Source: Eledone cirrhosa (taxonomy: Eukaryota). Taken from it: DNA of 64,000 bases. The notes beneath the pieces were generated by a model. The model had not been told where the DNA came from. It did not search any database and was given only the letters and a program-made list of their open reading frames with translations. Where the stretch lies: NCBI GenBank assembly GCA_964016885.1, contig OZ024752.1, forward strand, positions 41,788,001 through 41,852,000. Direction: 5' to 3'. The translations under genes were made by a program, and so were the position numbers. Of this stretch, positions 4,612 to 63,760 are shown in pieces (position 1 is the stretch's first letter; each line of letters starts with the position of its first letter).

Positions 4612-5460
4612 GGAGGCACATGGCTTAGTGGTTAAAGCATTGGCCTTGCAATCGAAAGGTTGTGAATTCAATTCTCAGACCGGGTGATGTGTTGTTTCCT
4701 TGAGCAAGACACTTTATTTCACTTTGCTCCAGTTTACTCAGCTGTAGAAATGATATGATAGGGACTGGGGTCCATATCATTCCACTGCAAAGTGGTCGTG
4801 GAGGTGCCACAGCAAAAAAGCACCCAGCACTCACTGTAAATGAGGTTGGTGTTAGGAAGGGCATCCAGCTGTAGAAATAAGATGATAGGGACTGGGGTCC
4901 ATATCATTCCACTGCAAAGTGGTCGTGGAGGTGCCACAGCAAAAAAGCACCCAGCACTCACTGTAAATGAGGTTGGTGTTAGGAAGGGCATCCAGCTGTA
5001 GAAATGATATGATAGGGACTGGGGTCCATATCATTCCACTGCAAAGTGGTCGTGGAGGTGCCACAGCAAAAAAGCACCCAGCACTCACTGTAAATGAGGT
5101 TGGTGTTAGGAAGGGCATCCAGCTGTAGAAATAAGATGATAGGGACCCCAGTCCCTATCATTCCACTGCAAAGTGGTTGTGGAGGTGCCACAGCAAAAAA
5201 GCACCCAGCACTCACTGTAAATGAGGTTGGTGTTAGGAAGGGCATCCAGCTGTAGAAATGAGATGATAGGGACTGGGGTCCCTATCATTCCACTGCAAAG
5301 TGGTTGTGGAGGTGCCACAGCAAAAAAGCACCCAGCACTCACTGTAAATGAGGTTGGTGTTAGGAAGGGCATCCAGCTGTTGATGATGATATTGAAGTAA
5401 ACTGAGGTAGAATGATCAGAATAAAAAGCAACATGCAAGCGTGGAAGATGGACGTTAAAC

Positions 5461-6491: not shown

Positions 6492-6957
6492 CCCTAGAAG
6501 TTGCTGACAGCTTTTGTTACCTCAGAGTAACATCCCACTTACATATGTTCATGCACTCTACAAAATGCACCAGTTGCATTTTATCATGACAGCAGCACTA
6601 GAGAGATTGTCATATCAACCCAAGAGTTCTTGCTACCCTTTGTTTGGCAAATTTTCAATGGTTGGATGCCCTTCCTATTATCAACCACTTTACAGAGTGT
6701 ACTGGGCTTATTTTATCATGTCTCCAACACTAGAGAGGTTGCCATGCCTTTGATACAACTGTAAATGTGGTTGCACTCACAGATACTACATCTAATGTTG
6801 TGCAGTGTCTTTCCATACTTTACAGCAATGTCTGGTCTCCTAGCCAGAATCACTTCATCACATTGTTTGTTAGAATCCTACAACAATTATATTTCTTGAC
6901 TTATCATGTCTCCAACACTAGAGAGGTTGTCATGCCTTTGATACAACTGTAAATGTG

Positions 6958-7112
6958 GTTGATGTTAGGAAGGGCATCCAAGCGTAGAAACCCTGCCAGA
7001 GACAGTCCTATAACTAGCAAGACACAATCACCCGACCAATCTTGCCTCAAGTGGGACAATTCCTGTCTAACCCATGCTAGCGTCGAAGATAGACATTAAA
7101 CGATGATGATGA
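6958..7112 (+). mobile_element. Bipartite non-autonomous RTE-derived element
   Basis: GTTAGGAAGGGCATCC...CCCATGCTAGC...GACATTAAAC-(GAT)n. Confidence 0.75.
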
Positions 7113-33844: not shown

Positions 33845-34228
33845 GCAAGCATGCTCCGTTGGATGTGCAGTGTAAATGTGCGTGAACGACCCAGCATAAA
33901 TGTGTTGAGAGAGAAACTGTGTCTGAGAGGGATAGAATGTAGTGTACGGGAGAGGAGACTGAGGTGGTACGGACATGTGATGCACATGGAGGATGACCGA
34001 TGGGTGAAGAAGTGCCAGGAAATGCCAGTTGAAGGAAGACGTGGTAGAGGTAGACCATGAAAAACATAGGCGGAGGTGGTGAGAACAGACCTCAGATCAT
34101 TGAAGCTCACGGTGGAGATGACGAGGGACCGTGACGAGTGGAGAGATGCTGTGCTGAATAAGACCCGTCCCACCCTTGCAAGCAGGGAAAAGCGGACGTA
34201 AAATGATGATGATGATGATGATGATGAT
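33845..34228 (+). mobile_element. RTE-clade LINE 3' end
   Basis: MLRWMCSVNV...RRLRWYGHVMHM...RGRGRP; its tail GCAAGCAGGGAAAAGCGGACGTAAAA(TGA)n is shared with SINE A. Confidence 0.9.
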
Positions 34229-36944: not shown

Positions 36945-37770
36945 TCTGTAAAGTGGCAGTGCTGGTGTCACTATAAAAATGCACCCAGTCCACTCTGTAA
37001 AGTGGCAGTGCTGGTGTCACTATAAAAATGCACCCAGTCCACTCTGTAAAGTAATAGTGCTGGTGTCACTATAAAAATGCACCCAGTCCACTCTGTAAAG
37101 TGGCAGTGCTGGTGTCACTATAAAAATGCACCCAGTCCACTCTGTAAAGTAATAGTGCTGGTGTCACTATAAAAATGCACCCAGTCCACTCTGTAAAGTG
37201 GCAGTGCTGGTGTCACTATAAAATGTACCCAGCCCACACTGTAAAGTGAAAATGATGGTGTCACTATAAAAGGTACCCAGGCCACTCTGTATAGTGGCAG
37301 TGCTGGTGTCACTATAAAAATGCACCCAGCCCACACTGTAAAGTGGCAGTGCTGGTGTCACTATAAAAATGCACCCAGTCCACTCTGTAAAGTGGCAGTG
37401 CTGGTGTCACTATAAAAATGCACCCAGTCCACTCTGTAAAGTAGCAGTGCTGGTGTCACAATAAAATGTACCCAGCCCACTCTGTAAAGTAATAGTGCTG
37501 GTATCACAATGAAATGTATCCAGCCCACACTGTAAAGTGTCAGTGCTGGTGTCACTATAAAATGTACCCAGCCCACACTGTAAAGTGGAAATGATGGTGT
37601 CACTATAAAAGGTACCCAGCCCACTCTGTATAGTGGCAGTGATGATGTCACTATAAAATACACCCAGTCGACTCTGTAAAGTGACAGTAATGGTGTCAGA
37701 ATAAAATGCACCCAACCCATTCTGTAAAGTGGTAGTACTGCTGCCACAATAAAATGCACTAGTGCATTCT
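36945..37770 (+). repeat. 48-49-bp tandem array (~17 units) of the RTE-5'/SINE pseudoknot module
   Basis: Unit CTCTGTAAAGTGGCAGTGCTGGTGTCACTATAAAAATGCACCCAGTCCA, ending in GGTTGGCCTTAGGAAGAGCAT. Confidence 0.9.
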
Positions 37771-40060: not shown

Positions 40061-40409
40061 GGAGGCACATGGCTTAGTGGTTAGAGCATTGGCCTTGCAA
40101 TCGAAAGGTTGTGAGTTCAATTCTCAGACCAGGTGATGTGTTGTTTCCTTGAGCAAGACACTTTATTTCACATTGCTCCAGTCTACTCAGCTGTAGATAT
40201 GAGATGATAGGGACTGGGGTCCCTATCATTCCACTGCAAAGTGGTCGTGGAGGTGCCACGGCAAAAAAGCACCCAGCACTCACTGTAAATGAGGTTGGTG
40301 TTAGGAAGGGCATCCAGCTGTAGAAATCAAGCCAGAATCAGTTCCCGTCCCACCCTTGCAAGCAGGGAAAAAGCGGACGTAAAATGAAATGATGATGATG
40401 AAATGATGA
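40061..40409 (+). mobile_element. Full-length SINE family A
   Basis: As 13951. Confidence 0.9.
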
Positions 40410-40989: not shown

Positions 40990-41483
40990 GATCATGTAGG
41001 TGTCACGACAAAAAAACACACACAGTCCACGCTGTAATGTGTCCGTGTAGGTAACACGGTAAAAAGTTCCCAGTTCCACACTGTAAATGTGGTTGGTGTT
41101 AGGAAGGGCATCCAGCCGTAGAAAACCTGCCAGATAGTCCTATATGAATGAGACACGGTCACCCGACCAGCCTTGCCTCAAGTGGGACAACTCCCGTCTA
41201 ACCCATGCTAGCATGGAAAATTGACATTAAACGAAGATGATGATGATGATGATATAGATATATAGATATATAGAAATCGACTTTTGTCAAATCGGACCGA
41301 GGAAACAAGGTTTCCGTTGGTGTTTCCAATTGCTAATACTATATATCGGTTGCAACTCCAGGTAGAAGGAGTAACGTGAAATAAAGTGTCTTGCTCAAGG
41401 ACATAACGCACCGCCCGGTCAGGAATCGAACTGACAACCTCACGATTGCAAATCCAATTCTCTAACCTATCAGCCGCACGCTC
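40990..41483. mobile_element. Bipartite RTE-derived element (+, 40990-41252) and a tRNA-derived SINE (-, 41280-41483)
   Basis: GTTAGGAAGGGCATCCAGCC...(GAT)n. The reverse strand has GGTTAGAG, GTTCGATTCC and CCTTGAGCAAGACAC. Confidence 0.75.
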
Positions 41484-53524: not shown

Positions 53525-54032
53525 TGGCTGCCAACTTGTTTTCGAGTACGGCCACTACTTTATATCCATGTAGGAGAAACCCTACCGATGCGCTGAACGA
53601 GTGCGACTTTTTAGTCCAGCCAGCGACTTGAAAACTCTGGTACAAACACTACACTTGTGACAATTATTGACACATAGTGCTGGGCCCATGGTACCATGTG
53701 ACGACAAGTGCAGAGAGATCTCCAGATATAAAGCAATGCCTGTGCCGTGAAGCTTTTATAGTGAGCAAAGGCACTGCACAAAGCCAGTCCCACTCTCTTA
53801 ACCAAGATGATATTTACCAAAAAGAAGAACAAGTCAACATCATTGGATACCATCAGGGTTGCAGGTGTTATATCAGAGTTTTCCTTCTCCTAGAATTCTG
53901 CCTTGACAAAGGCTAAGGGGTCATCTTTCCCGGTGATTTTATATGCATACATACACACATATATATACACACACACACCAAAATACATGATGAAGACTAG
54001 ACAATTATTTTAATGACAATGCAACACTAAAA

Positions 54033-54633
54033 TGCACCCAGTACACTCTGTAAAGAGGTATTGCTGGTGCCATGATAACATACACCCAGTACACTCTGTA
54101 AAGAGGTATTGCTGGTGCCATGATAACATACACCCAGTACACTCTGTAAAGTGGTATTGCAGGTGCCATGATAACATACACCCAGTACACTCTGTAAAGA
54201 GGTATTGCTGGTGCCATGATAACATACACCCAGTACACTCTTCAAAGAGGTATTGCTGGTGCCATGATAATATACACCCAGTACACTCTGTAAAGAGGTA
54301 TTGCTGATGCCATGATAATATACACCCAGTACACTCTGTAAAGTGGTATTGCTGGTGCCATGATAATATACACCCAGTACACTCTGTAAAGAGGTATTGC
54401 TGGTGCCATGATAACATACACCCAGTACACTCTGTAAAGAAGTATTGCTGGTGCCATGATAACATACACCCAGTACACTCTGTAAAGAGGTATTGCTGGT
54501 GCCATGATAACATACACCCAGTACACTCTGTAAAGTGGTATTGCTGGTGCCATGATAACATACACCCAGTGCACTCTGTAAAGAGGTATTGCTGGTGCCA
54601 TGATAATATACACCTAGTACACTCTGTAAAGTG
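54033..54633 (+). repeat. 48-bp tandem array (~12 units) of the RTE-5' module
   Basis: Unit CACCCAGTACACTCTGTAAAGAGGTATTGCTGGTGCCATGATAACATA. Confidence 0.9.
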
Positions 54634-61811: not shown

Positions 61812-62398
61812 ATGGTTTCTTATATAGGCACAAGGCCAGCAATTTGAGGGGAGAGGGGACAGTCGATTAAATCTACCCCAGTGCGTGACTGGTACTTTAT
61901 TTTATCGACTCTGTAAGGATCAAAGGCAAATTTTAATCTCTGCGGGATTTAAAATCGGATCGTAAAGGGCCGTAACTCTATGCCGCAAAGCATGGCGTCT
62001 GACCTTCTTCCGATACTGCCAATCCCACCGCCCTTAATATAGTTTCAATATAATAAAACCCCCCCAAAAAGCTATTATTATCTTTAATATATGCTGAAGC
62101 ATATAGACAATATGCCCCCACACCCCCCACACAAGGTGGTCGTGGAGGTGCCACGGCAAAAAAGCACCCAGCCCACACTGTAAAGTGGACGTGTAGGCGC
62201 CACGAAAAAGCACCCAGCACTCACTGTAAACGAGGTTGGTGTTAGGAAGGGCATCCAGCTGTAGAAATCAAGCCAGAATCAGTTCCCGTATGAGCAAGGC
62301 ATGGTCAGCCGACCGGACACTGCCCACAACAGGACAACCCGTCTAACCCATGCTAGCGTGGAAGAACGGACGTAAAACGGTGATGATGATGATGATGA
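61812..62398. mobile_element. SINE B (-, 61812-62033) and bipartite RTE-derived element (+, 62090-62398)
   Basis: Homology to 8882 and 9440-9770. Confidence 0.8.
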
Positions 62399-63267: not shown

Positions 63268-63302
<35 letters not shown>

Positions 63303-63469
63303 ACTGGACCGAGATCTTTGGCGCTACACAGTAATAGAGAAGACCCGCCTTACCTAAGTGCAAAGTGAAACCTACTACAGTCAGTAGGCATCTCTAACAA
63401 AATACACCCCCGTCCCACTACCCCCACCCCATCTACACCACCCCTTTCAATGTAAAGTTATGTTGGTAC

Positions 63470-63760
63470 TACAACATCCAGCCCGAAACAAACGAGGTCG
63501 TGTAGGTGTCACGACAAAAAAACACACAGTCCACGCTGTAATGTGGCCGTGTAGGTAACACGGTAAAAACCTCCCAGCCCCACACTGTAAATGTGGTTGG
63601 TGTTAGGAAGGGCATCCAGCCGTAGAAAACCCGCCAGACAGTCCTATACGAGCAAGACAACCACTCTTGTCTCAAGTGGGAAAACTCCCGTCCAAACTCA
63701 TGCAAGCGTGGAATATGGACGTTAAACGAGGATGATGATGATGATGATTATGATGATGAT
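63470..63760 (+). mobile_element. Bipartite RTE-derived element with two pseudoknot modules
   Basis: See the pseudoknot finding; (GAT)n tail. Confidence 0.8.

Follow-up and report, generated by a model that had tools for sequence, protein, structure and literature searches.

The window analysed here, a 64,000-nucleotide stretch of the Eledone cirrhosa genome (contig OZ024752.1, positions 41,788,001 to 41,852,000, forward strand), contains at 63497-63630 a set of short paired motifs that recur elsewhere in the same window. The first-pass annotation, made from the letters of the window, read them as a conserved, covarying module in RTE-derived elements, that is, an H-type pseudoknot (stems S1 and S2) followed by a hairpin with a CTGTAA-type loop, and offered reverse-transcriptase or ribosome recruitment, nuclease blocking or catalysis as possible roles. 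The locus raises three questions: which element carries the module, where the module comes from, and whether its pairing has been selected.

The module occurs twice in the 3' UTR of an RTE-type LINE

At 63.3-63.76 kb lies a 5'-truncated copy of an RTE-type LINE (LINE-A), reduced to its 3' end; relatives at 96-97% identity reach upstream into the reverse-transcriptase (RT) frame. A near-full-length copy, L067, has a single 1,032-aa frame with Pfam matches to Exo_endo_phos, RVT_1 and PHD (APE, RT and PHD domains); the PHD finger, matched by Pfam in LINE-A, follows the RT core in these RTEs. Both LINE-A and a second family, LINE-C, have a single ORF in which an APE endonuclease precedes the RT, and neither has an ORF1; we assign both to the RTE clade, a name that rests on this architecture together with established knowledge. 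Both also have short tandem-repeat 3' tails, (GAT)n/(TGA)n. The LINE-A features in the window are:

63301-63357 (+): last codons and stop of the LINE-A ORF (translation ...VIEKTRLT, then stop); longer copies extend into RT, PHD and APE
63358-63730 (+): LINE-A 3' UTR, recognised by its LINE-C matches; a captured segment with two modules, box and RTE-type terminal sequence
63497-63525 (+): module 1; S1 63497-63502/63510-63515 (6 bp, GTCGTG/CACGAC), possible S2 63506-63509/63522-63525 (4 bp, GTGT/ACAC)
63531-63546 (+): CTGTAA-loop hairpin of module 1, CCACG/TGTGG; every stem pair formed in 33-35 of 37 copies
63546-63572 (+): module 2; S1 63546-63552/63558-63564 (GCCGTGT/ACACGGT), shifted S2 63553-63556/63569-63572 (AGGT/ACCT)
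63580-63596 (+): hairpin of module 2, CCACA/TGTGG, loop CTGTAAA
63595-63624 (+): AGGAAGGGCATC box with flanking GGTTGG/CCAGCC helix
63731-63760 (+): (GAT)n microsatellite tail
40990-41090 (+): older LINE-A 3' end, its module 2 with just two in-register S2 pairs

The LINE-A frame ends at 63357, and therefore both modules lie in the 3' UTR, 130-230 nt upstream of the (GAT)n tail. The five complementarities that the first-pass annotation listed (63497, 63546, 40244, 5176 and 37054) are present as written, a CTGTAA-loop hairpin follows each of the five, and the last module precedes the AGGAAGGGCATC box, as described. S1 of module 1 is also present in the nested minimum-energy fold. Position T63556 of module 2 is C in the commoner subfamily; contigs of four sequencing runs (three organisms) contain the element, with T>C at 63556 in 44-73% of depth, which is uninformative on expression; no RNA run is among the runs listed as holding the element. 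Young LINE-A 3' UTRs often have a 112-bp unit, comprising module 2 and the box, in duplicate or triplicate (L050, L053, L057, L061).

The source of the module is the 5' UTR of LINE-C

LINE-C, whose protein is 60% identical to that of LINE-A, carries the module and the AGGAAGGGCATC box in its 5' UTR. The family is young (40 scored matches at 99-100% identity, from 1,917 candidates), and in two of five long copies (L383, L384) an open 1,024-aa frame runs into the tail. Module and box lie ~60-130 nt before the ORF ATG in 21 of 21 inspected LINE-C 5' ends, a set selected by likeness to a query containing the module and the APE start. Approached from the box, 239 copies with enough flank include three with a same-strand downstream APE frame, of which one is a chance neighbour, one an old, degraded 5' end and one a clean 5' end (L284, a LINE-C copy). 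The proposal that the module is RTE-derived, from an RTE 5' UTR feeding SINE bodies, is borne out by its presence in the 5' UTR of young, intact LINE-C; the same copies overturned a reading in which the module was confined to 3' UTRs and the LINE partner of the SINE lacked it.

Three further observations concern LINE-C itself. Its stop codon lies inside the 3' tail that it has in common with the SINE (L383:466-3537; L384; copies 99% identical); its 5' UTR starts, behind a poly-T run, with a second CTGTAAA-loop hairpin, then AGGGG and a long hairpin (L383:281-341); and most copies have in common a GT-rich upstream block of ~200 nt. An active octopus RTE has been described, in the accessible text of PMC9115989, with a mostly microsatellite 3' end, like LINE-C.

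Within the window, LINE-C and its partner SINE are represented by:

33845-34225 (+): LINE-C 3' fragment (source family, SINE partner); its ORF continues into the tail, and the module is absent from this end
40061-40392 (+): tRNA-head CORE-SINE; head ~40061-40131, CORE ~40134-40204, module 40244-40293, box, LINE-C tail 40343-40392

The head of the SINE is classed by Rfam tRNA matches on the heads of sister copies, and 40134-40204 is identical, letter for letter over the 3' hairpin, to the CORE of BivaCORE-SINE2 in the supplement of PMC4824008. This CORE domain escaped the first-pass annotation, as did the location of the 63497 copy in a 3' UTR belonging to another RTE family. The segment 40205-40345 (module and box) matches the LINE-C 5' UTR, and the tail matches the LINE-C 3' end (0/2000 shuffles in each case). 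In an unbiased genome sample of 65 CORE copies, 31 have module and box, 28 of them together with the LINE-C tail, and 30 come from other SINE families that have neither module and box nor LINE-C tail. We conclude that the SINE is built of tRNA head, CORE, LINE-C 5'-UTR piece and LINE-C tail, and belongs to the bipartite type of Kojima 2018, the available text of which describes SINEs with tRNA, CORE, RTE 5' piece and RTE 3' end (PMC5786205).

The SINE stretch that separates CORE from module, 40205-40243, contains two hairpins: one perfect, of 11 bp, and one small, with stem CCAC/GTGG and loop TGCAAA, which is another variant of the module hairpin. The CORE 5' half also recurs in three or more further CORE-type SINE families that lack the module and differ in bodies and tails (window 29368 and 22600 (-); L205, L229, L254, L270). 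The module hairpin of the SINE copy resembles the 3' hairpin of the BivaCORE-SINE2 CORE (28/5000 shuffles); the likeness is not significant for LINE-A copies, and module profiles give no CORE match. Pairwise comparisons hint that the whole module may descend from a deleted form of the CORE domain, but no profile match backs such an origin.

The LINE-A 3' UTR matches both the LINE-C 5' UTR and the LINE-C 3' end (0/2000 shuffles each), and the end of the LINE-A ORF matches the LINE-C end weakly (48/2000 shuffles). The terminal match and the weak ORF-end match would fit a scenario in which LINE-A captured, downstream of its ORF, a 3' portion resembling that of a SINE. At the other end of the element, the 650 nt upstream of the APE start contain no module in 10 of 10 near-full-length LINE-A copies, which could be 5'-truncated beyond those 650 nt (LINE-C control, 33 bits). 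LINE-A thus has the module at the 3' end but not in its 5' region, the pattern that relocation of a required handle would give.

The same segment is found in LINE-B and in abundant tandem arrays

Further copies in the window lie in a third RTE family, LINE-B, and in tandem arrays, to which the 5176 and 37054 examples belong:

62136-62233 (+): two SINE-type modules in the LINE-B 3' UTR; in the second, S1 is shortened and S2 contains a C.A mismatch
4739-5380 (+): tandem array of a 127-bp SINE segment, 5.1 units; includes the 5176 example
36945-37759 (+): 49-bp minisatellite made of the module, 16.8 units; includes the 37054 example
54028-54631 (+): 12.6 units of a 48-bp module minisatellite, S1 disrupted

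A module profile built from 10 window copies gives 54 matches of at least 12 bits within the 64-kb window and 556 matches of at least 15 bits in 136 random 10-kb genome stretches (1.36 Mb), with 0 in the reversed control; the box count in the same 136 stretches is 83. Arrays of at least four units hold 449 of 759 non-redundant module matches. If these figures are extrapolated to the genome of 3.0 Gb, module copies number on the order of a million, mostly in arrays. We conclude that this 50-base segment travelled from the LINE-C 5' UTR to the partner CORE-SINE, to LINE-A and LINE-B, where it occupies the 3' UTR, and to minisatellites.

The arrays may have arisen by slippage or unequal exchange between repeated hairpin sequences, and would be functionless. 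Multi-kilobase minisatellites of the 48-50 bp module, S2 often broken, occur elsewhere in the genome (G000:C1:5904888-5914824; L248, L328, L334), and at 6676-6980 of the window two old module/box fragments stand inverted around a short stretch, in a fold-back arrangement. A 5'-truncation hot spot at the module was considered and dropped, the analysis being confounded by alignment chaining and unit duplications.

The box also occurs outside the module. It is found at 120 metagenome loci on unrelated contigs, about 117 of them animal-type; 104 of the 120 are one short element type (L087-L204; ~250 nt, starting ~28 nt before the box, with an RTE-like tail), and in other metagenome matches the box directly follows a tRNA-like head. 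Among these 120 loci no module match is better than E 2.2, and viral contigs gave 0 matches to two box patterns. Because metagenome boxes lack the module, and because an RTE that begins with a twister ribozyme has a different hairpin in that place, RTEs need not have the module in general.

The CTGTAA hairpin is better supported than the pseudoknot

One account of the module is that its functional fold is a selected H-type pseudoknot (S1 of 3-6 bp, S2 GGTG/CACC of 4-5 bp, A-rich loop) followed by the hairpin, with one intact copy kept per active element while second copies decay. The five listed examples are not independent evidence for it, because the copies are homologous; for each of them, 1-4 of 300 dinucleotide shuffles yield an equally good H-type fit. 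S1/S2 complementarity with H-type loop lengths is present in five of nine window copies, and the four others (36955, 54058, 62185, 41040) do not form a 5+4 H-type fold. More favourable to a selected pseudoknot is the comparison of LINE-C with the SINE, in which the core GTG..GGTG..CAC..CACC is the same while nine other columns differ; the LINE-C module fits a 4+4 H-type fold, as do 17 of 1000 shuffles.

We surveyed pairs by group in 285 representatives of 422 matches. The S1 core, GTG/CAC, is nearly invariant, and the outer S1 pairs change one side at a time, mostly from T.G to T-A or C-G; in the old type one S1 pair is most often an A.G mismatch. For S2, five pairs form in the SINE type. The last S2 pair is G.A in 65 of 65 LINE-A module-1 copies, and LINE-A module 2 has two in-register S2 pairs and a shifted S2 with T-A in 45 of 81 copies and C.A in 35 of 81; among exact genome copies of module 2, the C form, which shortens S2, numbers 26,508, a count that includes duplicated units, against 7,253 for the T form. 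These fixed breaks argue against a selected S2. On the other side stand two lineage-level double changes, one turning C-G into T-A (LINE-A module 1), the other T-A into A-T (an older lineage of module 2). Copies with a GGAGA loop have the partner T in register in nine of ten cases, and the tenth keeps a T by shifted alignment; copies with a TCTCC strand have the complementary GGAGA loop in two of the first 100 listed, out of 1,340 in total.

To assess retention of pairing we compared lineages with a random-substitution null, on hand-drawn trees of representatives selected post hoc. S1 pairing is retained beyond the null (P 0.013; with LINE-C added, 0.011 or 0.00005 depending on the root). S2 retention is not above the null when the tree is rooted on the SINE type (P 0.67 and 0.50); rooting on LINE-C makes it borderline (P 0.05), and first or only modules, which retain 4-5 S2 pairs, give P 0.013. 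The extra S2 Watson-Crick types likewise give P 0.048 without LINE-C, 0.13-0.18 with LINE-C, and 0.006 on inclusion of a sublineage of two or three copies that was likewise selected post hoc. In a tree-aware G-test of the R-scape kind (274 rows), significant covariation is lacking for S1 and S2, the best S1/S2 pair having E ~108, in a test run without positive control and of low power, because dead copies mutate freely.

The CTGTAA hairpin behaves differently. Its stem of 4-5 bp is kept in five groups through register shifts, and one of its pairs has changed on both sides, being T-A in 41 of 45 SINE/LINE-B terminal copies and A-T in 44 of 53 LINE-A module-2 copies; in 10 of the 53 the closing pair is an A.C mismatch. 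We conclude that the CTGTAA hairpin is better supported than the pseudoknot.

The S2 3' strand, moreover, has a rival partner. In terminal modules, in both the SINE and LINE-C, it can alternatively pair with GGTGT at the start of the box, and in the two commonest SINE/LINE-B classes the five box pairs are complete in 59 of 82 copies, against 41 with all five S2 pairs. A simple pseudoknot energy model, rough as it is, favours nested folds by 0.4-7.0 kcal/mol in six of six cases; folding z-scores are weak, -0.6 to -1.4 for pieces of 63494-63630 and ~0 for the LINE-C 5' UTR. It is conceivable, if doubtful, that the S2 strand alternates between two states, the pseudoknot and a long hairpin formed with the box.

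What stands of the conserved, covarying structure proposed in the first-pass annotation is thus two short hairpins kept across lineages, and a covarying pseudoknot is not demonstrated. The term "compensatory changes" holds for the two-sided change in the hairpin and, for S2, for the two double changes; it overstates S1, and the S2 of module 2 is a pairing in shifted register. A precedent for a selected pseudoknot exists in the pseudoknot-hinge-stem of the vertebrate R2 3' UTR, described in the portion of PMC11601368 available to us, and with the evidence divided in this way we consider such a fold rather improbable. The SINE architecture was already known; the module is real, very abundant and RTE-derived; the covarying pseudoknot is possible but unproven; and the module is not established as a new structured-RNA class.

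A putative handle for an RTE protein

Our preferred account, to which we give about an even chance, is that the module is a putative position-independent RNA handle, made of small hairpins, for an RTE protein, with the pseudoknot as an optional fold. That the module would be bound by an RTE protein is suggested by its places of residence, because a promoter or translation role cannot explain retention in a Pol III SINE or behind a stop codon. LINE-A and LINE-B might have acquired it by a tail swap with the SINE, or with a bipartite RNA, during reverse transcription. Two findings speak against the handle: RTEs in general do without the module, and its folding z-scores are weak.

A more specific form of the handle account is that RTE proteins grip RNA at two sites, the tail and the pseudoknot-hairpin module, and this we hold to be doubtful. 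If true, a two-site grip would explain why RTE-mobilised SINEs keep a LINE 5'-UTR piece, and LINE-A would offer a natural experiment, its second site having been transferred from 5' UTR to 3' UTR by tail capture from its own SINE. The retention of an internal LINE 5'-UTR piece by RTE-driven SINEs is a question that a retrotransposition assay can address directly here, since the piece is small, its partner LINE is young and intact, a partner SINE exists, and the natural variants form a dated series.

The segment could, alternatively, matter in the LINE-C 5' UTR alone, as internal promoter DNA or in translation, and be a neutral passenger elsewhere, carried with the tail. Promoter signals are to be expected in RTE 5' UTRs (PMC5786205, in its accessible text), conservation concerns sequence as much as pairs, and most copies lie in tandem arrays, where pairs break, the number of modules per element ranging from one to many. 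Against a neutral passenger, S1 and the hairpin remain paired through several fixed changes in the 3'-UTR lineages, and LINE-A, having seemingly lost the 5' module, has kept two 3' copies over a long series of subfamilies; we judge this account unlikely.

Catalysis, the last of the roles offered in the first-pass annotation, is unsupported. Rfam gives only two tRNA heads for the whole window at gathering thresholds, no match at E<=10 over 63470-63700, in line with the statement that the module matches no named family, and no ribozyme match for the module, the SINE or the LINE-C 5' UTR. The positive control was L076, a 5' end from a different RTE family of this genome, in which Rfam recognises a twister-P1 (E 8.8e-11). 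The module lacks the twister P4/L4 core and GAGGG strand, and, in respect of HDV-like ribozymes, it has no P3 or P4 between the S1 and S2 strands and no Rfam match. A self-cleaving ribozyme or active twister variant is accordingly very improbable: the module does lie directly before the TTGG-box, the place of the twister in that other RTE and in Perere-3 (PMC8501958, in the part available), and its hairpin and flanks resemble, by eye, a twister P2 with the core deleted, but the same tool that finds the L076 twister finds nothing here, and self-cleavage within a SINE or 3' UTR would sever the head or the ORF. A degenerate-twister origin, based on that same by-eye likeness, has no model support.

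The twister-bearing family is of interest in itself. Its copies (L069-L084, e.g. L076:1483-1537) begin with a minimal type-P1 twister without P3, with 16 exact core matches; the L076 match scores below the Rfam gathering threshold, the APE frame lies ~230 nt downstream in most copies, and element ends coincide with the UAA cleavage site.

Relation to known elements

We found no published description of the module, its folds or its move into LINE 3' UTRs, although it may be named in Repbase or in Ohshima and Okada 1994; the accessible parts of PMC4758252 (including its supplement) and of PMC10085705 do not describe it. [quoted passage not shown] 2 of Kojima 2018 (PMC5786205), the search covered the searchable supplement of that paper, in which the AGGAAGGGCATC box has 0 matches.

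Among known systems, RTE twisters, such as that reported at the 5' end of the RTE Perere-3 in the available portion of PMC8501958 (RF03160), have in common with the module a place in the RTE 5' UTR, upstream of TTGG and of a hairpin that ends with GTA(G)AAA; the module differs in having no catalytic core and no Rfam match. The pseudoknot-hinge-stem loop of the vertebrate R2 3' UTR is alike in combining a small pseudoknot, here a possible one, with a following hairpin, and in serving as a template handle for the element's protein, the role that the module may have. According to the accessible text of PMC11601368, the R2 fold occupies the final 65 nt, and cryo-EM together with compensatory mutants established it; the module, by comparison, lies 60-230 nt from the tail or in a 5' UTR, in another clade, and no sequence likeness is claimed.

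Mollusc CORE-SINEs provide the CORE, which is that of BivaCORE-SINE2, and octopus OR1/OR2 are cited in the available parts of PMC4824008 and PMC4758252. The closest relatives in architecture are the Kojima-type SINEs, which, as far as the accessible text of PMC5786205 goes, likewise have an internal RTE 5'-UTR piece, which can be duplicated, and an RTE 3' end; its main text proposes no structure for the piece. In Eledone cirrhosa, by contrast with those SINEs, the piece is also present in the 3' UTRs of two autonomous RTE families and seeds minisatellites.
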